IMG/VR virus record: IMGVR_UViG_2585427752_000010
Source: a virus
Lineage: Duplodnaviria; Heunggongvirae; Uroviricota; Caudoviricetes
Strand: one strand, 5' to 3'
DNA: 19,561 bases
Part shown: positions 4,092 to 19,561 of the stretch, one piece after another
How the letters are laid out: every line of letters begins with the position of its first letter
Numbering within the stretch: position 1 is the first letter of the stretch
Made by a program: the position numbers and the translations under genes
Notes under the pieces: generated by a model
What the model was told of the DNA's origin: nothing
Seen by the model: the letters and a program-made list of their open reading frames with translations, nothing else
Databases searched by the model: none

Positions 4092-4522
4092 CCGTCCAGA
4101 AGAAGACATTTTCACTGGCTGGTATGTCGCCAAAATCCAGCAATATGACGGCAAAGTCAGGCATTAATACAGCAGATACAAGCAAAGTTTATCATTTGCT
4201 GGTGGTCGGAACGGATGCCTTAACCATATCAGAAATCTCGGGCGATGATATTAGCATTGAGAAGGTCAGCGGCTGCGCCAGAGAATTTCTGGTCGTAGAT
4301 GACCTGTTCTGCTCGCGTAGTGACTCCACAAAAACATTCGTCCACGCGCGTGACGTTAACGAAATGAGCGCGATGTACTGTGCTTCTGGTTCTTCCAATA
4401 GTGAGTTTTCGGAGTCCATAAAAAAGAGCTTGCCGTTATGCGGCAACACGGTTTATGGTTATAAGGCACCTCATAAAACGGGTGCCGGGTTTCGCAGCCC
4501 GGAAATGTACGAGGCGACACAT

Positions 4523-4544
4523 GACGCGCCGAGCGTCTTTTTTT
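4523..4544 (+). terminator. putative intrinsic terminator inside the ambiguous 4085-4746 region
   Basis: GACGC-gccga-GCGTC hairpin followed by TTTTTTT. Confidence 0.35.
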
Positions 4545-4746
4545 GTGCCGTTAGCCAGACTCACACTTTTTTCAGTGATGTGGTTATAATCCGCGTCGCT
4601 TGCAAAATTATGGTGGGCTGGACAGGGCAGCCGAAAGGCTGGCCGGTTTCCTTGTACGCCGGTACTGCGAACTCTGTTCAGTCCACCACCAGCGAGTTTC
4701 GCAGCTCCGGTGGTGGGAAGAATTCCCAGTACAAGGAGGCTGCCAC

Positions 4747-5152: not shown

Positions 5153-5339
5153 CTCAATTAATGCCCCTCGCCTTACGTCCGCACTTCAATTAATCGAGCA
5201 AGCAGCGGCTGTCCTGGTTGCTGTCAGTCTTTCGGCTGAAGAAATGGACGCTGCTGATGTCGTGGATGCGATTAAAGCGTGCTCATCTTTGGTTAACGAT
5301 GCCCGTGCAGAGCTGGTAATTCTTGGTGGTGAAAAATGA
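5145..5339 (+). CDS. small hypothetical protein (64 aa)
   Basis: ATG at 5145 in frame within the 5088 ORF; overlaps the upstream stop; downstream stop overlaps the next start (ATGA). Confidence 0.5.
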   Translation: MNNSINAPRLTSALQLIEQAAAVLVAVSLSAEEMDAADVVDAIKACSSLVNDARAELVILGGEK

Positions 5340-6764: not shown

Positions 6765-7128
6765 AAATGCAGAAATGGCGCTTAGCTCCGCAATCGGAGA
6801 GCAGGTGGCAAAGATTGCTGGTGCTGTGTGGATTCATAACCTTCATTCTACTGGTGAAGAGAAAATGGCAATTCAGACGCCAGAGGGACGCACCATTACT
6901 ACATCTCTGAAGCCGTCAGATGTTTGTGATCTGATTTGCGCATTCATGTACCCAGCAATGAGGACTGTCCACGGCGATAAGTGGAAACTTGCGACAACCG
7001 CTGAATTTGATATGTGGCTAAACAATGATGGCATGCTGACTGATTACGGAATAACCAAGTGGCAGATGCTGGTTAGCCATATCGCAAACGCTATAGACCA
7101 CGTGGGGTACGGTGATGCGAAACATTGA
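6757..7128 (+). CDS. hypothetical protein (123 aa)
   Basis: ATG at 6757 with GGAGG RBS; 3' end overlaps the primase start. Confidence 0.7.
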   Translation: MRENAEMALSSAIGEQVAKIAGAVWIHNLHSTGEEKMAIQTPEGRTITTSLKPSDVCDLICAFMYPAMRTVHGDKWKLATTAEFDMWLNNDGMLTDYGITKWQMLVSHIANAIDHVGYGDAKH

Positions 7129-9466
7129 TCTTATCCGTCAGGTTATCAGTGCGTCTGAAAACAACTGGCCTCATGTGCTGGGCTGCCTGAACATAAATGT
7201 CCCTGACTCTCCGCGCCGTCATGCTCCCTGCCCTGCATGTGGGGGCAAAGATCGATTCCGGTTCGATGACAACGGGCGCGGTAGCTTCATCTGTAATCAG
7301 TGCGGCGCTGGTGATGGGCTGGATTTAATTAAACGCGTAAATAACTGCGACACAACAGAGGCGGCGCTTCTTGCCGCTGATGTTCTGGGTATTGATTACC
7401 GGACAACGGAAACACCAGAAGCCACCAGCCAGAAACGGGAACAACTGGAAACCGAGCGCCAGCGACGCGAACAGGAGCGCCTGAAAAGGGCAGAGAAGGA
7501 CGAACAACAAAGACGGGATACGTTTTCCCGTCAGTTTGATGACATGCGCAGAAAGGCTGTAAACGGCAAATCTGATTATCTGGTTGCGAAAGGGGTAGGT
7601 GATTTTACATTCCCCGTGTTGCCCGATGGATCTCTGTTGCTGGCGCTGGTGGATAAATCCGGCGCAGTCACAGCAGCACAGACTATTACCTCACATGGTG
7701 AAAAAAGACTCCTGACAGGTTCGGCAAAGCGGGGGGCATATCACGCCATAAACGCACAGAAACGACCTCACAGCATCATAATTGCTGAGGGGGTGGCTAC
7801 CGCCCTGTCGTGCCATTTAATTCGCCCTGACGCAATGACAGTGGCAGCAATCGACGCTGGCAACCTGTTGCCAGTAGCGGAAGTCATGCGCAGAACATAT
7901 CCGCAGGCACAAATAATCATTGCTGCAGATAACGATCACCAGCAAGGAGACTCAGAAAGTGGAGGGATCAACACGGGGAAAGATGCCGCAGAGAGGGCCG
8001 CTATTTCCGTAGCTGGCAGGGTGTCTCTGCCACCGACTGACTATAAAGCCGACTGGAACGACTATCACCAACAACACGGGCTGGCGGCAGCCACAGCAGC
8101 ATTTAAAGATTCGATGTACCAGCCACGGGGGAAAGGGGCGCAGGTGAAAAATCACAAACAGTCAGTCGGGGCGCTGAATGAGATCAGTTCTGGCGAGGTG
8201 TTAAGCGATGATGAAATTGCTGTCCTCGAAGAAATCAACCGGACGTTTACGCATGTCACCATCGGCGGGAAACACAAGGTGGGGTCGCTAAAGCCTTCTC
8301 AAACCGGCGGTGTATCGCACGTTTTCGAGGATTTATCACAATTTCAGCATTATTTTCATCATAAACCGAGAGTCGCCAGAAAGCTGGCGGGATCGGCGTG
8401 GCTGTCATGGAGTGGGAAGAACTACAAGCCAGGAGGCGTAGGATTTTATCCAGTACCAGACAAATGCCCTGACGATGTTTTTAATCTGTATGAGGGGCTG
8501 GCACTGGAACCAATTGAAGGAGATTGCACGGTATACCTTAATCACCTGTTGCAGGTTGTCTGTGCCGGTAATGAAGAGGCATACCAATATCTTATCCAGT
8601 GGATGGCGCACATTATCCAAAAGCCTGATGAAAAACCGTCCGTGGCAATCGTGATGAAATCTGTCCCGGGCACAGGGAAAGGCACAACGGTTAAACCGCT
8701 GCTGCAAATACTGGGGCAGTACGCCGCCCACATTAACGGGGCGGGACATATTTCAGGGCGCTTCAATTCAATACTTGCTAACAAGCTACTGGTATTTGCT
8801 GACGAAGTGACGATCCACAAGCCGTCTGAAGCTGACAGACTTAAAGCGATTATTAGCGAACCGACGTTTAACCTTGAGCGCAAGGGAATTGATGCTGAAC
8901 CAATGCCGAATTTTGCCCGGTTGATATTTGCCAGTAACAGCACACAGGTATTACAGGCAGGGATAAGAGAGCGTCGCTATCTCGTGCTTGAGCCATCTCC
9001 TGAAAAAGCACAGAGCCGGGAGTATTTTGATCGGCTGTACAGTTGGCTTAATGATGGCGGTGCCGCAAAGTTGCTTTGGCATCTTAAAGGGGTGGATCTC
9101 TCAGGTTTTGACCCTCAACGAGCGCCACAGACCGATGCCTTACGTGAAGAAATCTTGCTGGGGCTGTCTGGCGTTGAATTGTTTCTTTATGGCGAGCTAA
9201 TCAATGAACCTCCGTTTAATGGCGAAGTCCGTTTGTTTGCAAAGGATATGGTTAGTCGGTTTGTAGCGTGGTCGCTTGAGCGTGGGGAAAAGCTTAAAGA
9301 ACCAGCTGCCAGATCACTACTGGGTAAATCACTTGCACAAATGGGGCTGGTGAAGCATGGAAGACCAGACCGAGGGAATGGCGTGTTCTACGAACTACCA
9401 GAGGTCGGAGTTCTACAGGCTGCGTTTGCCCGTCTGATCGGTATGGGGGGTTATGATGTTTTTTAA
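7112..9466 (+). CDS. P4-alpha-like bifunctional primase-helicase
   Basis: 784 aa; N-terminal zinc ribbon CPACGG...CNQCG; TOPRIM-like motifs IIIAEGVATA and IIAADNDH; C-terminal P-loop NTPase region with Walker A-like PGTGKGTT and Walker B-like LLVFADEV. Start may be GTG 7112 or ATG 7115. Confidence 0.9.
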   Translation: MMRNIDLIRQVISASENNWPHVLGCLNINVPDSPRRHAPCPACGGKDRFRFDDNGRGSFICNQCGAGDGLDLIKRVNNCDTTEAALLAADVLGIDYRTTETPEATSQKREQLETERQRREQERLKRAEKDEQQRRDTFSRQFDDMRRKAVNGKSDYLVAKGVGDFTFPVLPDGSLLLALVDKSGAVTAAQTITSHGEKRLLTGSAKRGAYHAINAQKRPHSIIIAEGVATALSCHLIRPDAMTVAAIDAGNLLPVAEVMRRTYPQAQIIIAADNDHQQGDSESGGINTGKDAAERAAISVAGRVSLPPTDYKADWNDYHQQHGLAAATAAFKDSMYQPRGKGAQVKNHKQSVGALNEISSGEVLSDDEIAVLEEINRTFTHVTIGGKHKVGSLKPSQTGGVSHVFEDLSQFQHYFHHKPRVARKLAGSAWLSWSGKNYKPGGVGFYPVPDKCPDDVFNLYEGLALEPIEGDCTVYLNHLLQVVCAGNEEAYQYLIQWMAHIIQKPDEKPSVAIVMKSVPGTGKGTTVKPLLQILGQYAAHINGAGHISGRFNSILANKLLVFADEVTIHKPSEADRLKAIISEPTFNLERKGIDAEPMPNFARLIFASNSTQVLQAGIRERRYLVLEPSPEKAQSREYFDRLYSWLNDGGAAKLLWHLKGVDLSGFDPQRAPQTDALREEILLGLSGVELFLYGELINEPPFNGEVRLFAKDMVSRFVAWSLERGEKLKEPAARSLLGKSLAQMGLVKHGRPDRGNGVFYELPEVGVLQAAFARLIGMGGYDVF

Positions 9467-9495: not shown

Positions 9496-9600
9496 ACCTG
9501 TACCACCTATACCACTTTGCTAATTCAGCATTAAAAACAATGTGTTATAGTGGTACAGGTCAATATCTTACCTATACCAGACCTGTACCACCTATACCAT
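9496..9600. repeat. iteron cluster 1 (putative origin-type repeats) just downstream of the primase
   Basis: ACCTGTACCACCTATACCA at 9496-9514 and 9581-9599, inverted partial copy GTGGTACAGGT at 9550-9560, and partial copy CCTATACCAG at 9571-9580. Confidence 0.6.
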
Positions 9601-9642: not shown

Positions 9643-9873
9643 ATGATGAGCACACCATTTTACAAAGTGCGCCAGTTAGCTTCTTCCTCTGGCTGGCAGC
9701 TACGGTTTGAGGGGCGTTCAGACTGGCTACCCATTGCGGCATGGGCGAATGTTGAAATGTGTATTGACGGCGATACCGTTGAAATCATTATTCCCTGCGT
9801 GGCAAGTCGGGACGGCTGTATAGAGCCAACAGATATGGCAGCAGAAATCAGAGAGGTAAAACATGAGCAATAA
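9643..9873 (+). CDS. hypothetical protein (76 aa)
   Basis: ATG at 9643 preceded by GAGAGGGAA; stop overlaps the next gene's start. Confidence 0.6.
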   Translation: MMSTPFYKVRQLASSSGWQLRFEGRSDWLPIAAWANVEMCIDGDTVEIIIPCVASRDGCIEPTDMAAEIREVKHEQ

Positions 9874-10600
9874 CTATTGCATACCGCAGGGAATGACCAG
9901 AACGGAGCGCGAAGAATTAAAAAGTTTCGCTACACAGTGCGGGAATGCTGGCGACATCCAAAGTCTGGAACGCACTTTAATTATGATTGCGCACTGGATG
10001 CGTCAGGGGCAAAGGGTTTCATTTACTGAATATGCCAGCCAGTGGACAGAGGCACAGCGCGAACGGAGCGACGGTAATCACTCAACACCCGAAATGGCGA
10101 AGCAATGGCCTTTCAGTGGTAAACGCTGTATCAGTCCCGGTGGTTCAGATTATTACCCTGCTGGTGTGGGAGATGAGCCATGTTGTGACGAGACTGAAAT
10201 CCGCCACGCAGTGACAGTAATTACCGCTGAATACCCACAATTTAACCTTGACGGACTGGCGCTCCACAACCGGAATGCGGACTGGGAAAACCCGCTTGAT
10301 AACCCGTCATTTATCGTATCGGCGAAAAGCTGCCTGAGATGGATCAGAGACAACGGGATGAGTAATGCCCAGATTGAGAGCTTCCCGCAGGATAACCCCA
10401 CATCTGACACGTTGAAGCATGAAGTGGAGCGATATAACCAGATAAACCACCAGCACAGTGATCACCCGCACTATATCCCCAACGGAGCATTTATTGCGGC
10501 GATGGTGGCAAGCGGCTACAAGGTTAAGCCAGCGGGAAGAATGAACGCATTTTTCAATATTTCAAAAAAGGGATTATGTGCTGCTATGGGTAAAAATTAA
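9863..10600 (+). CDS. hypothetical protein (245 aa)
   Basis: ATG at 9863 preceded by GAGAGG; Cys- and His-containing product with no motif recognisable by eye. Confidence 0.7.
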   Translation: MSNNYCIPQGMTRTEREELKSFATQCGNAGDIQSLERTLIMIAHWMRQGQRVSFTEYASQWTEAQRERSDGNHSTPEMAKQWPFSGKRCISPGGSDYYPAGVGDEPCCDETEIRHAVTVITAEYPQFNLDGLALHNRNADWENPLDNPSFIVSAKSCLRWIRDNGMSNAQIESFPQDNPTSDTLKHEVERYNQINHQHSDHPHYIPNGAFIAAMVASGYKVKPAGRMNAFFNISKKGLCAAMGKN

Positions 10601-10605
10601 ATAAA

Positions 10606-10709
10606 TGGTACAGGTCTGTACAGGTGGGGAGAGGTCATTTTTACCCACCTGTACCACCTGCAGGCCGCGTCACACAAGGGTTTGTGACATGGTGGTACAG
10701 GTGGTACAG
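10606..10709. repeat. iteron cluster 2 (same GGTACAGG/CCTGTACC family)
   Basis: TGGTACAGGTCTGTACAGGTGGG (10606-10628), inverted CCCACCTGTACCACCTG (10644-10660), TGGTGGTACAGGTGGTACAGC (10689-10709), plus a GTCACA-N8-TGTGAC inverted repeat (10669-10688). Confidence 0.6.
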
Positions 10710-11380: not shown

Positions 11381-11842
11381 ATGGAACTAAAATTTATTGA
11401 TAACCCTGTGCGATTACAGGCCTTTCTTAACGATCCTGGCAATACCGAAAATATTGTTGAGCCGGGGCACACGTACTACATCAAGCCTGATGCGGTATAT
11501 CTCGGCATCTACGAAGGATTGGTGCTGGCTGGCGTTCATGAAGTGCGTAACTTCTGGCATAGCATTGTTGAATGCCATGCGGTGTACGACCCCGGATTCC
11601 GTGGTGAATATGCACTGCAAGGGCATCGATTATTCTGCAAATGGCTTCTCGAAAACTCACCATTCCTTAACAGCATCACTATGGTTCCTGACACCACGAA
11701 ATACGGACGGGCAATTATCCGTTTGCTTGGCGCTACCCGTGTTGGTCACCTTGATGATGCTTATATCAGATGTGGTAAACCCGTCGGCGTAACGCTTTAT
11801 CAGTTAACTCGGCAACAATATAAGGAATTCAGCGAATGTTAA
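11381..11842 (+). CDS. hypothetical protein (153 aa), second gene of the operon
   Basis: ORF starting 17 nt after the small gene; stop overlaps the next start (ATGTTAA). Confidence 0.75.
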   Translation: MELKFIDNPVRLQAFLNDPGNTENIVEPGHTYYIKPDAVYLGIYEGLVLAGVHEVRNFWHSIVECHAVYDPGFRGEYALQGHRLFCKWLLENSPFLNSITMVPDTTKYGRAIIRLLGATRVGHLDDAYIRCGKPVGVTLYQLTRQQYKEFSEC

Positions 11843-12513
11843 TTACCCATATAGCTCATAAACATCTCAATCGTGCCGTATACGAAAAAGGCGGTGATGG
11901 TGGTGCCTCTAAAGCTCAGGCGAAGGCCCAGCAGCAGGCAATTGATTTGCAGCGCGAGCAGTGGAATACGGTGATGAATAATCTCAAGCCGTATGCAGAA
12001 GTCGGATTGCCTGCTTTACAACAACTACAAGGACTGATGACTCTGGAAGGGCAGAATAAAGCCGCGAATGATTTCTTTGGTTCTGGTTTATATAAAACAC
12101 AGGCAGATCAGGCCCGTTATCAGAACCTTGTCTCAGCAGAAGCTACCGGGGGGCTTGGCTCAACAGCTACCAGTAACCAGTTATCTTCCATTGCGCCCAT
12201 GCTTTATAACAATTGGCTTAGTGGGCAAATGCAAAATTATGGAAACCTGCTAAATGTCGGGATGAATGCGGCATCAGGACAGGCAACGGCAGGGCAAAAC
12301 TACGCCAATAATACCGGACAACTCTTGCAGGGGCTTGGCGCTATTCGTGCAGGTCAGGCGCAGCAGCCATCCAGTCTTGCGCGTGGTATTGGTGGGGCAG
12401 CATCAGGCGCTTTAGCGGGTGCGCAACTTGGTTCCGTTGTTCCTGGAATAGGTACTGCGGCAGGCGCTATTGGTGGTGGGCTTATTGGTCTTGTTGGGGG
12501 GCTTGGATTCTAA
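11836..12513 (+). CDS. Gly/Ala/Gln-rich protein with C-terminal glycine-zipper hydrophobic segment (225 aa)
   Basis: AAGGAA RBS; low-complexity Q/A/G/N-rich body; C-terminus GIGGAASGALAGAQLGSVVPGIGTAAGAIGGGLIGLVGGLGF has repeated GxxxG spacing typical of membrane-inserting glycine zippers. Confidence 0.75.
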   Translation: MLITHIAHKHLNRAVYEKGGDGGASKAQAKAQQQAIDLQREQWNTVMNNLKPYAEVGLPALQQLQGLMTLEGQNKAANDFFGSGLYKTQADQARYQNLVSAEATGGLGSTATSNQLSSIAPMLYNNWLSGQMQNYGNLLNVGMNAASGQATAGQNYANNTGQLLQGLGAIRAGQAQQPSSLARGIGGAASGALAGAQLGSVVPGIGTAAGAIGGGLIGLVGGLGF

Positions 12514-13826
12514 TGGCGACATGGCAACTTGGCGGGCTGCCTAGCATGGCACCGCAAAATGATAATGCTCCTCGTTCTTCCGTTCCTCAGCCTGTGCAGT
12601 ATCAGCAGCAGCCAAACGTAGGTTTAATGGCGCTACAGGGGCTAAGAGGCGTTGCTGAGATTAATCAGCAGGCGCAAATTTCCCAGCAGCTAAAAGAATA
12701 TCAGGCACGGTTGGGTAGTGCGGTAGCTAATAATGATCGTGTTGGCGTGCAGAAGTTAATGGCCCAGTATCCCCAGTTTATGGCTGATTCTCAAAAACAG
12801 ATGGGATTCATTGATGCTGAGCAAAATCGGCAGACCGCTGACGCTGCCATGAATCTGCGTCTTGCGTCACAAACTGGAGATCCACTGACCATGCAGAAGG
12901 CCATTCAGCAGGCAAATCCAGTATTACAGCGATTTGGTCTTCCTGCTGAAGAGGTTTATCAGTCTTGGCAGAATGACCCACAGGAATTCAACAGAATCAC
13001 TGACCTCATCCACCTCCATGCTGATCCAAATAGTTACTTTAGTGTTCAAGAGAAGCAGCAAGGGCAGAGTATTGCACAGCAGAACGCAGATACATCTGCA
13101 TATAATGCTCAGGTTAATGCGGAACAGGGTAATCGGCGTCTCGATATGGAGCAGTTCAAAGCCCTATCCGATAACCAGCTACGCACGAGAGAAATGGTTC
13201 TGAAAGCACGACTTGGACGTGCTCAAAATGACATCGAGAGAGACAAGCTCAATGCTGAACTGAGCAAGGTACAGCAGGCGAAAGTGGAGAAGATGAACGA
13301 TAAAATTAATACTGTTGTAGGTAACATCGACTCCTTGAACTCTGCGCTTGAAGTGGGTCATGAACTGGCGGGAATTGTAGGGAAACATCCTTCGGCCGTT
13401 ACCCGTTCGCAGAACTATAACCCCCTGACGCTGGGGTTTGGATTCCTTCCTGATGTAGCAGAAGACACACGAAGCCTACGCGCCAAAGCTGATGAATACA
13501 ACCTAAAGGTTATTCTGCCTAGCCTCAAAGGGACTTTTGGCTCTAACCCAACCGAAGGGGAAAGGGCTGCCCTTATGCAATCTCAAAATGGCATTAAGTC
13601 AGCAACCAGCAATGAGGCATTTTTGCGAGAGTTGAATAAAGCGCAGGACGTAATTATTCGAATGCAGAAACGACAGATTGCCGGGCTCGGTATTCCTGTA
13701 ACCAAATCTAAGGACGAAGAAACTGATACCAAAATGCTGTTGCAGGATCCTTCTCTGGTTAAGGATTATGTGACCGCACATGGCTATCTGCCGGAAAGTT
13801 ACTATCAGGCAAAACTTAAGGGATAG
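12513..13826 (+). CDS. Gln-rich, probably coiled-coil protein (437 aa)
   Basis: ATG overlaps the upstream stop (TAATG); Q-rich N-terminal half and charged, heptad-like central region. Confidence 0.8.
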   Translation: MATWQLGGLPSMAPQNDNAPRSSVPQPVQYQQQPNVGLMALQGLRGVAEINQQAQISQQLKEYQARLGSAVANNDRVGVQKLMAQYPQFMADSQKQMGFIDAEQNRQTADAAMNLRLASQTGDPLTMQKAIQQANPVLQRFGLPAEEVYQSWQNDPQEFNRITDLIHLHADPNSYFSVQEKQQGQSIAQQNADTSAYNAQVNAEQGNRRLDMEQFKALSDNQLRTREMVLKARLGRAQNDIERDKLNAELSKVQQAKVEKMNDKINTVVGNIDSLNSALEVGHELAGIVGKHPSAVTRSQNYNPLTLGFGFLPDVAEDTRSLRAKADEYNLKVILPSLKGTFGSNPTEGERAALMQSQNGIKSATSNEAFLRELNKAQDVIIRMQKRQIAGLGIPVTKSKDEETDTKMLLQDPSLVKDYVTAHGYLPESYYQAKLKG

Positions 13827-13828
13827 CA

Positions 13829-16549
13829 ATGATGGCACAACTGACAGAAAAACAGAAAGCCTATTCCCGTCATCTCGATGAAAAATATGGTTTCCCATCA
13901 GGGACGATGGAAACATTAGTTGGCAATGAATCTAGTGGTAACGGAAGTGCCGAGTCACCGAAAGGAGCTAGAGGATTTGCTCAACTGATGCCCTCAGTAA
14001 TGAGTGATGCTGGTTATCGTGGAACAGATCCGCGCTCACTGCCATTTGAAAAGCAAATGGATATCGCAGCAAACCATCTCAATAAAGGAATGAAGCGATT
14101 TGGTGATATAGGTATGGCATTGGCTGGGTATAATTCTGGCTATGCTCGTATTAATGCCGTAAGAAACGGTAAATCTACACTGCCAGATGAAACGGCTAAT
14201 TACGTAAGTAAATTTGCAGATGCCGGAATAATCCCTGATGACAGTGAAATCTTGCAGTTTGCACAAACCAGTCAACATCGCAATCTTCAGCAGCCTGACT
14301 ACTCAGAGCTTGATAAAGAAATCTCTCAGGTGGGAGATATTTCTGCATGGGAAGCAAAACGTCAGCAATTTAAGAACATAGAAGCAGGACTACCAACAGC
14401 CAGTTCATGGGAGCAGAAAAGAGCTCAGTTTCTCGCCGATGAAAATGCCGGGGAACCGCAGCAGCAAGTAGCCAAGTCTAACCTTAATCCTGAGATGGAA
14501 TATCTTTCGCCAGGACTGAAAGCTGCGCCAGAGCAGATGGCCAGAGGGATTGCTAATATACCGTTTGATGTAATGGACGCAGGCGTGGGGGTAGTCAATG
14601 CGGCGCAATCAGCCGGAGCATGGGCAGCTCAGAAGCTTGGTGTGGGTGATGGCACATACACGCCCATATCACCTGTCTTTCGCCCAGTAGACCAACCTAC
14701 AGATCCATACGCGCAGGCTGGTGAGCAGCTAGCACCTTACCTTATTACAGGATTAGGTGCAGGAAAGGCAGCTACCGCAGCTTCTTCAGTTGCCAACGCT
14801 CCACGTGCTGAACGTGCGGCCACAAAGGTGGCTAGTATGTTGGCAGAAAACCTGCCAGGTACATTGGTGAACGCCCAAAAGAACGGGCAGATCAGCCCAG
14901 AAGACCTAGCAAAAGAGACAGGTATTGGCCTAGCAGGATCGCTAGGAGCACGCGCTTTAATAAAGAGCGGACAGACAGCCAGTGACGTAATGCGAGATGT
15001 ATTGCGGAGTAATACAAATCAATCAGGCCATGTGTTAGGGGCAGCAAATACTCTGGAAACCGCCAATGATGTATCGAAAGCAGCGCGTTCTGCCGTAGGC
15101 CGAGAGCATATCGCATCGCAGGCATCAAACGTCAGAGATGATGTCGCTAAGGCGGCGAAAATTACTGGTATTAATATCAACACCCTGACGCCTGGAATGC
15201 GCTCAGGTAGTCGTGGAATTGCCCAAGCAGAAGGTGTTCTGGCATCAACTCCTGGGAATGTTCAGGATGCTCACCTTACGGCCTTCAATGAAATATCCTC
15301 AAAGTTGAATAAGCAGTTGTCTGATTTCGGTGCTGAGTCTGGAAGCGCATCAGAAAAAAGCGCAGCAATTAAAGAGCGCATCATCGCGAGCCTCAGTGAT
15401 ATGAAAACAGCAGAGAATATGGCATGGGCAGAACTGCGAAGCACGATGCCACGCGAAAGGATGAAAATGAGTAATGGGATGGCTGTCGTCCAAGCAGAAA
15501 AAGCAGCCAATGTTCCACTCAGCCCGGAGATGAAACAGTTTCAGGCTGCCAACAACCAAGGTGGCGGCATAACCTTCGACGGGATGAAGGCATGGCGTGC
15601 TAAGTTTGCTGATGCTGAACAAGCAAACACCCGGGCAGGTAAGGCCAATGCCGCCCGGATTGCCGGAGAAATGCGCAGAGCTATCACTGATGACATGCGC
15701 ATCATGGCTGAAAAAGGAAACTTCCTCACAGAATGGCAGAAAGCTAACGATCTCTCTAAAAGTTACATTATCGCCAAACAAAATGCCGAATCTGTTTTTG
15801 GTCGAGATCTCGCATCAGACGCTATGGTAAGAAAAGGTGCCGATACGCTTAAGGCATCCGCAAACACTGGAACGGGAGCTTTTCACCGTCTTATCTCCGC
15901 GCTGCCGGAAGCAGAACGCCAACCAGCAATAGCATCTATTCTTCAGCATGCTGTGGCGCAGGGAGAGAAGGGAGGAATCGGTGAAGAATCTGGTATCCAG
16001 TATTTTGCCAAGCTCATGACCCAGCAGAATGTAAACGCCATCAGTCGTCATGCGCCAGATCTCGGTAGAATGATGAAAGAGTTCGGTGTACTCGCTAAAG
16101 CCAGCACCAGACCGCAGCGATACGTAGAGCGCACGGGAAGAACAACTGAGGCTCTCAAAACGCTCGATTCAGGCCTTCCAAAGATCGTCGGCGTGATTAT
16201 GAACGGAGTTCAACAGTCAGGTGCGATCGCTGGAGGCTTTGGCGGTGGTGTAATTGGTTCGATTAGTGGTTTGGTTGCTGGTGGCGCGCTGAGAAATACT
16301 GTGGCTAAGATTGGGGCGACAAGAAGTGGTAGATATGCGATAGAGAAAGCCGTTCAGGAAGCTACAAAAGCAGTGCGCGCAGGGGCATCACCAGCAGCGA
16401 TCGCCGCAGCAGAGAAACGATTTTCGGCCAATAAAATTGCCATGAAAGCAATTCGTGATGCCGTTGGGGCTGAAGAATTCGTGAAACTGACAAGGGCCGG
16501 GATTGTAGCTACCCTCAGTGGCATGAAAGATGTTAGCGAATGGGAATAG
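13829..16549 (+). CDS. large protein with N-terminal lytic transglycosylase (SLT) domain and C-terminal Gly-rich hydrophobic segment (906 aa)
   Basis: N-terminal NESSGNGSAESPKGARGFAQLMP fits the SLT catalytic ES...GA.G..QLMP pattern and ALAGYNSGYARI fits the AYN.G motif; long Ala-rich body; near the C-terminus GGFGGGVIGSISGLVAGGAL. Confidence 0.85.
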   Translation: MMAQLTEKQKAYSRHLDEKYGFPSGTMETLVGNESSGNGSAESPKGARGFAQLMPSVMSDAGYRGTDPRSLPFEKQMDIAANHLNKGMKRFGDIGMALAGYNSGYARINAVRNGKSTLPDETANYVSKFADAGIIPDDSEILQFAQTSQHRNLQQPDYSELDKEISQVGDISAWEAKRQQFKNIEAGLPTASSWEQKRAQFLADENAGEPQQQVAKSNLNPEMEYLSPGLKAAPEQMARGIANIPFDVMDAGVGVVNAAQSAGAWAAQKLGVGDGTYTPISPVFRPVDQPTDPYAQAGEQLAPYLITGLGAGKAATAASSVANAPRAERAATKVASMLAENLPGTLVNAQKNGQISPEDLAKETGIGLAGSLGARALIKSGQTASDVMRDVLRSNTNQSGHVLGAANTLETANDVSKAARSAVGREHIASQASNVRDDVAKAAKITGININTLTPGMRSGSRGIAQAEGVLASTPGNVQDAHLTAFNEISSKLNKQLSDFGAESGSASEKSAAIKERIIASLSDMKTAENMAWAELRSTMPRERMKMSNGMAVVQAEKAANVPLSPEMKQFQAANNQGGGITFDGMKAWRAKFADAEQANTRAGKANAARIAGEMRRAITDDMRIMAEKGNFLTEWQKANDLSKSYIIAKQNAESVFGRDLASDAMVRKGADTLKASANTGTGAFHRLISALPEAERQPAIASILQHAVAQGEKGGIGEESGIQYFAKLMTQQNVNAISRHAPDLGRMMKEFGVLAKASTRPQRYVERTGRTTEALKTLDSGLPKIVGVIMNGVQQSGAIAGGFGGGVIGSISGLVAGGALRNTVAKIGATRSGRYAIEKAVQEATKAVRAGASPAAIAAAEKRFSANKIAMKAIRDAVGAEEFVKLTRAGIVATLSGMKDVSEWE

Positions 16550-16699: not shown

Positions 16700-17398
16700 A
16701 TGATTAAAAATCTTCTTTTAATATTATCCCTGTCATTATTGGCTGGATGCGTACAAAAACCGTTAGTAACGGTCAATGCTTTATCTTCCGGGCAATCTGT
16801 CGGTAAGAAGTTCTTGATCATCCCCGCAAGCCAAGAACTTTGGAACACCAAACAGATTGAATACACTCAAATAGCTACGGTAGTAGCCGCCAGTTTATCA
16901 AGCCAAGGATATACACAAGTTAAAGATGAAAAATTGGCTGACCAGGTAATTCTCTTGAACTTTTTGAGAAGCGGGGCCATTTCAAATACTCGTAATGTAA
17001 CCATCCCAATATACGGGCAAACTGGTGTGAGCTCAGCAACAACGTACGGAAACTCGAACACCACGTTCAATAGTTATGGTGGTGGCTACGGTACAGCTAA
17101 TATCACTGGAACGGCAACAACAGTTTATACGCCTACTTATGGAATTACTGGCGCGTATAACACAACTGTGACGGACACGTTCTACGGCGCAGGGGTGATA
17201 CTCCAGTCGTTTGATGCCAAGGCTTATCTCAATAATAGGCAGATTAATATGTTATGGAAAGTTGGTAGCTCAGTCGTCTCGCAACAGTCTGATGGAATTG
17301 CTGATTACAAGGGGTTGGCGAGAATAGCCGCTAGCTATGCCGGGAAAAATACAGAAGGTGATATAACTTTTAATGTTGACCCTAAAGCACCAAATTAA
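16700..17398 (+). CDS. lipoprotein, Thr/Gly/Tyr-rich (232 aa)
   Basis: Signal peptide MIKNLLLILSLSLLAGC with lipobox LAGC; AGGTGA RBS; mature part rich in T/G/Y/N repeats; lower GC than the upstream operon. Confidence 0.8.
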   Translation: MIKNLLLILSLSLLAGCVQKPLVTVNALSSGQSVGKKFLIIPASQELWNTKQIEYTQIATVVAASLSSQGYTQVKDEKLADQVILLNFLRSGAISNTRNVTIPIYGQTGVSSATTYGNSNTTFNSYGGGYGTANITGTATTVYTPTYGITGAYNTTVTDTFYGAGVILQSFDAKAYLNNRQINMLWKVGSSVVSQQSDGIADYKGLARIAASYAGKNTEGDITFNVDPKAPN

Positions 17399-17895: not shown

Positions 17896-18117
17896 TCATT
17901 TTGTGACCAATGCGATAAGTAGCGGGATAAGAATTGATAAAATCAACAGGCCGATGATCCACTTTTGATTTTCACTGGCCTTATCTCTATTTTCATCAAT
18001 CTTATCAATAATTCGACGCTCCAAGCCGTGCATATCACCGCGAATGGCAATCATCTCATTGCGAACATCCGAGAAGTGGTTGGCTTGATGTTCAATGTGT
18101 GGCGTTCTGCCTTTCAT
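17896..18117 (-). CDS. small tail-anchored membrane protein (XhlA/holin-like topology, tentative), 73 aa
   Basis: ATG at 18117 (minus strand) with GAGGA RBS; charged N-terminal region followed by a single C-terminal hydrophobic helix WIIGLLILSILIPLLIALV. Confidence 0.6.
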   Translation of the reverse strand: MKGRTPHIEHQANHFSDVRNEMIAIRGDMHGLERRIIDKIDENRDKASENQKWIIGLLILSILIPLLIALVTK

Positions 18118-18196
18118 GCCTGATCCTCACCCATCGTCACCACCTGCTGGTGTATAAAGGTATTGGCGCAAGCGGCTTTCCTATGGGCACTCATGT

Positions 18197-18652
18197 TTAT
18201 ACGCTGACCTTACAATCAATCACCGCTTTTAACTTTTCAGCATTGCTTCCCTGACGCTTCCACGCGCTGTAAATATCTTTATCCCACGCTTTACCAGCTT
18301 TTGTTTGATAGCCTGCTTCATTGATCCGTTCAGCTATCACACGCCCATTATCAAATCCCTGTTGGATGGTATCGGCAATGATCTTTATAACTGCCGTTTC
18401 GTTATATGGCTTTGGTGGGATGTTCGGCTTTCCGGCAATAAGCGACGCAGCGGCTTTTTCCATGCGCTCCACCAGCCCAAGCATTCGTGAATCAATAGAC
18501 TTTTCCGGCTGTCTCAGCTTCATGCGAATCGCATCAACAAGCCAGGAGGTTTTATCCCCTCCAGAAGCGAGAACAGACCGATTAAACTCATCCTGCAATT
18601 CAGATGGGATGCGGAACGCGACCAGATTAGATTTGCTCATTGCAAAGACCAT
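18197..18652 (-). CDS. RHH-like DNA-binding protein (151 aa, or 147 aa from the alternative start at 18640)
   Basis: N-terminus SNLVAFRIPSELQDEFNRSVLASGGDKTSWLVDAIRMKL has a strand-helix-helix pattern; no clear SD for either candidate start. Confidence 0.65.
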   Translation of the reverse strand: MVFAMSKSNLVAFRIPSELQDEFNRSVLASGGDKTSWLVDAIRMKLRQPEKSIDSRMLGLVERMEKAAASLIAGKPNIPPKPYNETAVIKIIADTIQQGFDNGRVIAERINEAGYQTKAGKAWDKDIYSAWKRQGSNAEKLKAVIDCKVSV

Positions 18653-18671
18653 ATCAGTGAGTAATATCCAT

Positions 18672-18701
18672 ACAGTATACCACTGTATAACACTGTTATA
18701 C
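18672..18701. promoter_or_regulatory. paired palindromes upstream of the minus-strand RHH-like gene (putative operator)
   Basis: ACAGT-atacc-ACTGT (18672-18686) overlapping a 17-bp palindrome GTATAACA-C-TGTTATAC (18685-18701). Confidence 0.45.
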
Positions 18702-18753
18702 GCTCAAATATCAGCCAGAAAATAACGGACCAATCACAAAGCTATCGCTGTGT

Positions 18754-18875
18754 TGTTGGTTCAGAGCTGGGCTGTGTTGGTTCAAAATGAGTTGATGTTG
18801 GTTCAATATTTCAGAAAAAACACAATAAAAACAACGATCTTTACAAATTGAACCAACTGAACCAACTGAACCAAC
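18754..18875. repeat. phased iteron array: 3 direct TGTTGGTTCA repeats at 21-bp spacing plus 3 tandem inverted TGAACCAAC repeats
   Basis: TGTTGGTTCA at 18754, 18775 and 18796; AT-rich spacer; TGAACCAAC x3 in tandem at 18849-18875, ending 17 nt before a TATAAT (18893-18898) upstream of the PerC-like gene. Confidence 0.65.
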
Positions 18876-18911
18876 ACCTTTTTGCTTATCTATATAATCT
18901 GAGAGGCAGAA

Positions 18912-19199
18912 ATGATAAGGGACAGGAAAGCTGAAGAGCTGGAGTCAAAAGGGCTATACCGGAGAGCTGCCGCACGATGGGCAGAAGTCATGATGCTGGC
19001 AGATGGCGATAAAGAACGTGAACATGCAGCAAACAGACGTTCTGAATGTATCCGTAAGGCGGCACGCCCACCAGCAACTACAGACAGATTCGGAGATTTA
19101 AGACAGGCAGTTAAGCGGACTCATTCGGCTCTTGGTATGGATGAGGAAGCGAGAGGGTACTTCAGGCGTTATCGCGATAAAGATTGCCAGAGACAGTAA
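18912..19199 (+). CDS. PerC-family transcriptional regulator-like protein (95 aa)
   Basis: GAGAGG RBS; N-terminus MIRDRKAEELESKGLYRRAAARWAEVM resembles PerC/Pch regulators of E. coli prophage-like elements (recalled, not searched). Confidence 0.6.
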   Translation: MIRDRKAEELESKGLYRRAAARWAEVMMLADGDKEREHAANRRSECIRKAARPPATTDRFGDLRQAVKRTHSALGMDEEARGYFRRYRDKDCQRQ

Positions 19200-19272
19200 T
19201 GCTCTCTCTGTTTTGGCAAATTACCCCTCACTTTGAAGGGATCGGAGCTATAAAAATGGTTTTAGGTACATT

Positions 19273-19372
19273 CCTCAAATTGAGGATTGTGGGAAAACCA
19301 ATGGGTTAGGCTTTTCCCCCAATGGGGGTTTTCGAAAGAATCAATGGGTTAGTCCATCGTGCAAATTTGCAC
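19273..19372. repeat. cluster of palindromes and direct repeats downstream of the PerC-like gene
   Basis: CCTCAA-A-TTGAGG (19273-19285); CCAATGGGTTAGG-like direct repeats starting at 19298, 19319 and 19341 (21-22 bp phase); perfect 14-bp palindrome GTGCAAATTTGCAC (19359-19372). Confidence 0.55.
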
Positions 19373-19561
19373 CATGCCAGCCAACGCAATTTCTCGTTGG
19401 CGAAAATATCAGGTATTTACTGAACGAACGGTCTACCAGTCTGTTCAGTTACCAGTTGCATATGGCTGTTTCATGTGAGAACGGAGGTTTTTTCGGACAT
19501 CACTATTGGGTACAGCAATTTCACGAGCAATACGCGCGCGCAGGACAACAAGCCTGAACAT

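Follow-up and report, generated by a model that had tools for sequence, protein, structure and literature searches.

Gram-negative phage-inducible chromosomal islands (PICIs) of the EcCICFT073 type have a replication origin made up of two iteron sets around an AT-rich region, located immediately 3' of the rep gene (Fillol-Salom et al., 2018, PMC6092414). For EcCIMP1, a PICI of Escherichia coli MP1, the mobilising phage is the P22-like Kapi1, and the PerC-like protein of the island is a silencer of the LEE1 virulence genes (Pick et al., 2025, PMC11773190); the origin and iterons are not mentioned in that paper. Here, we describe an iteron array located near the right end of an EcCIMP1-like PICI, just upstream of a perC-family gene. 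The DNA is that of the IMG/VR virus record IMGVR_UViG_2585427752_000010 (Caudoviricetes), 19,561 nucleotides in length. This whole stretch is called the window below, and coordinates refer to it unless another locus is named. The island is integrated between yicC and dinD in many E. coli chromosomes. The array contains six copies of the 9-mer GTTGGTTCA. It is probably the distal, mirror-image iteron set of an EcCIMP1-type origin served by a DUF927-type Rep, orphaned by a swap of the replicon module and kept together with the perC promoter.

Two other kinds of replicon are useful for comparison. In P4, the initiator (the alpha protein) is a primase-helicase fusion. The P4 ori and crr share a type-1 iteron and lie kilobases apart, with tandem copies at 9-11 bp; ori is located in a divergent control region, and the C-terminal domain of alpha binds both elements. 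A requirement for crr in cis has been shown in P4. In iteron plasmids, auxiliary initiator-binding iterons located outside the minimal origin, such as P1 incA and F incC, can titrate the initiator or pair with it. These plasmid arrays flank the rep gene and lack an AT-rich unwinding element.

The array of the window is organised as follows.

18754-18805, plus strand: phased iteron set, three direct copies of TGTTGGTTCA starting at 18754, 18775 and 18796, exactly 21 bp apart.
18806-18848, unstranded: AT-rich spacer of 43 bp, 79% AT, with conserved AAAACAA and CTTTACAAAT motifs; candidate DNA-unwinding element.
18849-18876, minus strand: tandem iteron set, three head-to-tail copies of TGAACCAAC starting at 18849, 18858 and 18867, with a 9-bp period.

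TGAACCAAC is the reverse complement of TGTTGGTTCA, and the last tandem copy reads TGAACCAACA. The core common to all six copies is the 9-mer GTTGGTTCA, the copies of which span 18755-18875; these six are the only exact copies in the 19.5-kb window. In 300 first-order Markov resamples of the window that kept its transition frequencies, any one 9-mer reached at most four copies per 130 bp in 299 cases, against the six observed, and one resample reached seven. The original prediction for this region had listed three direct repeats 21 bp apart, then an AT-rich tract followed by three tandem inverted copies, and each of these elements is present. With three plus three exact copies of GTTGGTTCA around a 43-bp, 79%-AT spacer, the array has the layout of a PICI origin. 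Indeed, the origins of PICIs and of Staphylococcus aureus pathogenicity islands (SaPIs) also consist of two sets of short iterons around an AT-rich region, and their iterons are specific to the primase or initiator of the island itself.

In relatives of the window, the identical motif occurs in the place that defines a PICI origin, immediately 3' of rep. The islands of E. coli UMNK88, ABU 83972 and PKF11 encode as replicase a primase-helicase of 920 amino acids (aa) of the TOPRIM/DUF927 type. Directly 3' of this rep gene, each carries three tandem copies of GTTGGTTCA (9-bp spacing), an AT-rich stretch and three inverted copies (11- and 21-bp spacings). All three islands have a second set of GTTGGTTCA copies upstream of perC. 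In UMNK88, this perC array matches, along its entire length, the island's own origin read as its reverse complement, including part of the spacer and the 52-bp distance from set to set; the main difference is a segment of 10 bp, which turns the 11-bp spacing into 21 bp. The array of the window can likewise be aligned, from one end to the other, with the rep-proximal origin of UMNK88 in reverse complement.

This organisation was examined in a comparison set to which other species contributed 14 PerC loci and IMG/VR 80 DUF927-Rep loci, geometry being recorded over 100 loci. GTTGGTTCA is found 3' of rep in 87 islands, and the iterons of the array are identical to those of the canonical origin. 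Rep-proximal sets have the orientation +++--- with spacings of 9, 9, 52, 11 and 21 bp in 28 loci. Distal sets have the same orientation with spacings of 21 or 22, 21, 52, 9 and 9 bp in 18 of 26 loci, the window included. The distance of 52 bp from the third phased site to the first tandem site is thus common to rep-proximal origins and distal arrays. Two separated GTTGGTTCA clusters per element are seen in DUF927-Rep relatives (L001, which is UMNK88, L004, L020, which is PKF11, and 20 others), the window having only one. In about 20 loci, the sites form one contiguous array of about 12; in compact islands, the order is rep, the contiguous 12-site array, then ssb-perC. When 26 distinct distal arrays from several genera are aligned, conservation is seen in the iterons and the tandem set, at the CTTTACAAAT(T)GAACC junction, and in a TTTT-TGCTTAT(n)TATAT motif that follows the tandem set. 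The 43-bp spacer is partly conserved, whereas the 11-nt inter-iteron spacers are free to vary, as are the two flanks. As judged from these alignments, the mirror-image second set near the far end of the island, joined to the candidate promoter of the terminal gene, is a conserved element. It is not part of the published description of PICI origins in the literature that we searched. A literature search by iteron sequence returned unrelated papers only, and the literature on DUF927 with iterons and on P4 crr does not describe this array. A BLAST search of the array region gave no phage match, and its plasmid matches were only a mislabelled chromosome and one 12-kb record.

The sequence of the iterons varies together with the C-terminal end of Rep. 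In L009, L012 and L054, the 12-site layout is kept and every site reads GAGACAACA instead of TGAACCAAC; in L006, the iterons are CTTGTCCCA. Among 91 islands, the motif at the end of Rep and the iteron type correspond with no exception: QRKSPRI goes with GTTGGTTCA (87 islands), QGRVRE with GAGACAACA (3) and IRTPRLKHMKG with CTTGTCCCA (1). Sixteen of the 20 Rep alignment columns that discriminate these groups lie within the last ~100 residues. On the DNA side, the positions that differ between TGAACCAACA and TGAGACAACA are bases 4-5 of the iteron. Two Enterobacter loci, L009 and L010, illustrate the exchange at close range. Their Rep proteins are 96.5% identical in the helicase part and 71% identical in the tail. 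Along the two loci, the block made up of Rep tail, iterons and ssb (8600-10000 in L009, 7100-8480 in L010) is about 62-79% identical, between flanks in which the helicase is mostly 93-99% and perC 96% identical. Since this divergent block lies between conserved flanks, origin specificity and ssb are swapped as one cassette.

The most economical reading of this covariation is that the iterons are the sites recognised by a C-terminal origin-binding tail of DUF927-type Rep. We hold it very probable that these sites are iterons of a DUF927 Rep and that the array and the origin are homologous. There is a parallel with P4 in that the specificity of the iterons appears to track the C-terminus of Rep as ori and crr are bound by the C-terminal domain of alpha, and the N-terminal half of the window Rep, itself a primase-helicase fusion, is 33% identical to P4 alpha. 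However, the DUF927 Rep tail has no sequence similarity to the C-terminus of P4 alpha and no solved relative among PDB sequences, and the iterons differ from those of P4 in both sequence and layout.

Rep binding of the kind suggested by the covariation would give the following scheme for the parental islands. The extreme C-terminal tail of Rep would recognise the 9-bp iteron GTTGGTTCA. Directly 3' of rep, the canonical origin would have three contiguous sites separated from three phased ones by an AT-rich stretch, and the second set, of reversed layout, would either adjoin the first or lie kilobases away near the right end of the island. There, the contiguous sites would run into an outward promoter directed toward ssb-perC, perC or the exterior of the island. 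Rep bound on both sets could melt the AT-rich spacers and load its own helicase. The distal set might assist the origin in cis, in the manner of P4 crr, a role that we propose by analogy, and its occupancy could couple or gate the outward promoter with replication. Compared with P1 incA and F incC, the distal set differs in that it mirrors the whole origin and has an AT-rich spacer to itself.

The window departs from this scheme in its replicon, the elements of which are listed below.

7112-9466, plus strand: resident primase-helicase of 784 aa, with a zinc-ribbon and Toprim N-terminal half and a DUF5906-type C-terminal half (Pfam).
9496-9599, unstranded: resident origin candidate, an AT-rich stretch with six ACCTRTACCA iterons about it, just 3' of the replicase.
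10606-10709, unstranded: second resident iteron cluster, TGGTACAGGT and its complement, across orf245 from the first cluster.

The Rep of the window is 76% identical to the 920-aa Rep of UMNK88, WP_001244114, over residues 1-344 only, with no detectable identity beyond. A six-frame search of the window did not find the DUF927 C-terminal half or tail, the best match to the tail having an E value of 1.0. The GTTGGTTCA array is therefore without a cognate initiator in cis. In addition, the resident replicon has iterons of its own: ACCTRTACCA has 12 matches in the window at no more than one mismatch, nine of them exact, against 1.3 expected by chance. Their two clusters flank orf245, an open reading frame (ORF) of 245 aa at 9863-10600, in a layout that is identical in L019 and L101-L103.

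The GTTGGTTCA array itself lies 9.3 kb downstream of the replicase stop (9466), and the position 3' of rep that characterises PICI origins is held by the ACCTRTACCA set. Hence, the window copy differs from PICI and SaPI origins by its distance from the replicase, its place before perC, its mirrored layout, the outward promoter beside it and the absence of a cognate initiator. As the replicase has its own iterons elsewhere and the window encodes no cognate Rep tail, the array would not be the working origin of this island, and on balance we lean towards its being non-functional as an origin here. Thus, the earlier description of the region as an iteron-type origin was right about the kind of element, since relatives have the same 9-mer in a 3 + AT-rich + 3 arrangement 3' of a DUF927 rep; it does not hold for the working origin of this island.

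The proposed history is as follows. Recombination would have exchanged the C-terminal half of Rep together with the origin, with breakpoints at about Rep residue 344 and about 10.72 kb; beyond ~10.72 kb, the window and UMNK88 are homologous again. The incoming DUF5906-type module would have brought its own iterons, the GTTGGTTCA array staying behind with perC. In the window, the array would then persist mainly as a carrier of the perC promoter, and its binding or firing would depend entirely on a DUF927-type Rep provided in trans by a co-resident island.

Such hybrid islands are not rare. The DUF5906 module occurs in 140 of 5,426 complete E. coli genomes, many of which carry a GTTGGTTCA array on the same island. 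In at least two complete chromosomes with the hybrid island (DLL557 and OZ547202), there is no other GTTGGTTCA array. In five DUF5906-type islands that were compared, the 3 + 3 exact copies are kept only in the window. L019 and L101 have 3 + 2 copies, one tandem copy being lost. L102 has two exact and one degenerate copy (the first site) in the phased set and four copies in the tandem set. L103 has lost 85 bp, from the third phased site through the spacer and the tandem set to the TATA, and still has perC. Among loci that also encode a DUF927 Rep, 16 of 23 arrays are canonical. The difference in decay between orphan and cognate arrays is not significant (hypergeometric p ~0.06 by our own estimate, with non-independent samples), and a scan of IMG/VR for the DUF5906 module returned three loci, too few for statistics on orphan decay. 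The pattern nevertheless suggests that orphan arrays are under relaxed constraint.

Several points weigh against the proposed explanation. In the window, the array is intact and all its six copies are perfect, and the hybrid is frequent among the 140 genomes with the DUF5906 module; this could reflect a retained function rather than a recent origin. The resident core TGGTACAG (9551-9560 and 10606-10615) differs from TGGTTCAG (18754-18764) at one base in eight, which between two unrelated Rep modules could be due to chance or could allow the resident Rep to recognise the array. The assignment of the iterons to the Rep tail draws on their position and on covariation in a set where only four islands are not of the main type, and ssb swaps together with the tail. 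As for the distal set, its sequence would fit several roles, which may be those of a cis enhancer, a second loading site, a copy-control site or a promoter-control site. Finally, a consensus sigma-70 scan of 18100-19561 called no promoter.

The first two of these points are those that would be expected if the array were still a working cis element, cross-recognised by the resident DUF5906-type Rep and used as a distant third cluster or as a copy-control site: TGGTACAG and TGGTTCAG match at seven of eight positions, and a perfectly intact array is found in a hybrid common in E. coli. However, the C-terminal halves of the two Rep proteins have no detectable similarity, the extended TGGTTCAG is present in only three of the six copies, and copies or most of the array are lost in the other hybrid islands. 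Moreover, the resident module already supplies two clusters. We consider continued use by the resident Rep quite unlikely, and retain orphaning by replicon swap as the preferred explanation.

That explanation gives a place to the segment between the array and perC.

18877-18911, plus strand: promoter-like segment and leader, CCTTTTTGCTTATCTATATAATCTGAGAGGCAGAA, with TATAAT at 18893-18898 and GAGAGG at 18901-18906.
18912-19199, plus strand: perC-family gene, 95 aa (Pfam PF06069, E = 2.6e-33; PerC family in RefSeq relatives).

TATAAT lies 17 nt past the last tandem copy and 13 nt ahead of the perC ATG (18912). A recognisable -35 element is absent, and the last iteron sits in its place. Five E. 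coli contexts that differ in their left flanks are 100% identical between the tandem set and the perC ATG, and the identity in E. coli persists even where the 3' half of perC differs. In other genera, a TGCTTAT(n)TATAT motif follows the tandem set, and in compact islands it precedes ssb-perC. Conservation and the TATAAT make a promoter plausible, and the original prediction had placed the tandem copies against the perC promoter; in view of the result of the sigma-70 scan, that promoter is unproven. Side by side with this conserved block, perC itself is mosaic. The window shares the promoter and the first ~25 codons with L003 (20159-20440), L021, L023 and L025, after which amino acid identity falls to 54-77%, which suggests a recombination breakpoint within the gene, beside the conserved iteron/promoter block.

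The position of the array between divergent genes also raises the question of transcriptional control. The array could be an operator or activator site for the divergent promoters of perC and of the leftward 151-aa gene, whose product has been regarded as ribbon-helix-helix (RHH)-like; the binder would be this protein, PerC, AlpA, or a host or helper-phage factor. In its favour are the location of the array, the last site at the -35 position upstream of TATAAT, the full conservation of the tandem-set-to-ATG segment in five contexts, and the adjacency of the RHH-like gene in E. coli, Pantoea and Lonsdalea. However, arrays occur without the RHH gene (L003, L004, L021, L025, L027) and without perC (Pantoea L015, L071 and others), the same sites form the canonical origin beside rep, where no promoter is present, and all 12 sites switch together with the Rep tail. 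In addition, a separate set of repeats at 18670-18701 fits the RHH-like protein better. An operator role for the array is thus very unlikely.

As candidate iteron binders, PerC and the RHH-like protein were considered individually. PerC identity between L009 and L010 is 91%, and the PerC of L007 is closely similar by eye, yet these loci have three iteron types; conversely, the window PerC is only 42-45% identical to the PerC proteins of L014-L016, which share its iteron. PerC was rejected on these grounds. The RHH-like protein, whose gene has been seen with one iteron type only, is disfavoured by the arrays that lack the gene. The cooperative operator array for one of these two proteins that had been suggested is accordingly unsupported, with arrays lacking either gene and no covariation between PerC and iteron.

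The repeats that fit the RHH-like protein better lie upstream of its gene.

18670-18688, unstranded: palindrome 1, ATACAGT/ACTGTAT at 18670-18676/18682-18688.
18685-18701, unstranded: palindrome 2, GTATAACA/TGTTATAC at 18685-18692/18694-18701.
18197-18652, minus strand: divergent gene, 151 aa (annotated as 147 aa from 18640), with an N-terminal secondary-structure pattern compatible with an RHH fold.

The two palindromes overlap, as had been predicted, and lie 18-49 nt upstream of the start of the longest ORF of the divergent gene (18652). They are composed of 10-bp CACTGTATAA-like units; CACTGTATAA is present twice in the window (18682-18701) and three times in PKF11 (L020, 12001-12100). In Pantoea L015 (18770-18795), GTGTAAGACA occurs twice at the same position relative to the 151-aa gene. 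From their sequence, the palindromes at 18670-18701 are an element distinct from the iteron array, and they are probably a better candidate than the iterons for the operator of the 151-aa protein.

The fold of this protein was approached by several routes. It gave no Pfam match above threshold, and sequence searches against PHROGs and the PDB were uninformative. An AlphaFold2 model built with an alignment has a predicted local distance difference test score (pLDDT) above 90 for residues ~80-140, a C-terminal helical domain; the N-terminus, at a low-confidence pLDDT of 50-67, is modelled as an extended segment followed by two helices. Single-sequence prediction was poor (pLDDT 41), and a Foldseek search of the model against the PDB gave nothing significant. 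One source labels a homologue as an "Arc-like DNA binding domain protein", the RHH fold itself being unconfirmed. Just downstream, at 17896-18117 and in the same orientation (minus strand), lies a gene for a tail-anchored membrane protein of 73 aa (phrog_6324). Together, the two genes might constitute a small module, toxin or abortive infection in kind, along with its regulator.

The proximity of the array to the end of the island brings in a further alternative, in which the repeats would be integrase arm-type or excisionase sites close to the attachment site on the right. The occurrence of abutting tandem repeats towards the end of an island is compatible with this idea, the arm repeats of P4 being tandem as well, and the array of L071 stops 225 bp short of the host dinD orthologue. 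However, the same array is found in islands whose integrases are only 29% identical and which use different attachment sites, the same iterons occur in mid-island beside rep, and UMNK88 has a different repeated motif, GTGTACATA, both ahead of int and towards the right end, where it lies some 750 bp past the array. The chance that the array itself serves the integrase is therefore negligible, and we reject the arm-site idea on the divergence of the integrases and on the separate GTGTACATA motif at the island ends. In UMNK88 (L001), GTGTACATA is present three times upstream of int (5260-5311) and twice near the right end (21527-21547, which corresponds to about position 19626, just past the end of the window); these copies are probably integrase arm-type or att-associated sites. 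The right boundary of the island lies beyond the end of the window. Downstream of perC and before the island end, at 19271-19352, two 39-nt direct repeats each contain a hairpin and end in CAATGGGTTAG; this motif is absent near int in UMNK88.

The remainder of the island conforms to the EcCIMP1 family, with the following gene order.

First genes of the island: P4-type integrase, AlpA-like regulator, antirepressor and Ash-family gene, the last containing the isrK and C4 RNAs.
After the Ash-family gene: primase-helicase, P22-like ejection-protein genes, leftward 151-aa gene and right-end PerC-family gene.

The window shares with EcCIMP1 its family and this order (int, alpA, antirepressor, Ash, primase, DNA-transfer genes, right-end PerC). 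It differs from EcCIMP1 in its integration site, yicC-dinD, and in its Rep C-terminal module; the island of ABU 83972, at tRNA-Thr between proA and yagU, occupies the published EcCIMP1 location. The search for this island family covered 5,426 complete E. coli genomes, of which 1,477 contain it in whole or in part. Matches above the Rfam gathering threshold were obtained for int-alpA RNA (1269-1335), isrK (4466-4543) and C4 antisense RNA (4606-4693), with nothing in or near the GTTGGTTCA array. The isrK and C4 hits fall inside the Ash-family gene, in what is a P4-type RNA immunity module within a PICI-like island. The P22-like ejection set, at 11381-16549, comprises DUF2824 (Pfam PF11039), gp7, a gp20-like translocase and a 906-aa protein with an SLT lytic transglycosylase domain. 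It fits the P22-like helper of EcCIMP1 and differs from island to island. Between these genes and the right-end module, a 232-aa ORF at 16700-17398 with a lipoprotein-type signal (LLAGC) and no family match is a further piece of cargo.

These comparisons indicate a likely origin for the DUF927-type replicon and the Rep tail by which it is probably read, and they show replicase, origin and ssb changing hands as a single module. For annotation, the window is a caution, in that a perfect origin architecture in an iteron array does not make it the origin of the element that carries it. A bolder extension is that hybrid islands with a changed replicase keep, as their distal set, a foreign half-origin through which competing satellites interact in trans; the Rep of a co-resident or incoming EcCIMP1-type island would bind or fire it, or would be titrated by it. 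We regard this as unlikely. If true, it would mean hitch-hiking replication, satellite-to-satellite incompatibility, or Rep-dependent switching of perC, a regulator that affects LEE genes. The finding thus raises the questions of whether PICI origins are bipartite like P4 ori and crr, whether perC is tied to satellite replication, and whether stranded arrays lead to cross-talk between satellites. Finally, a split, mirror-image origin that brackets variable cargo could be an unrecognised feature of PICI replicons, which would provide bidirectional helicase loading as well as recombination anchors for module swaps.

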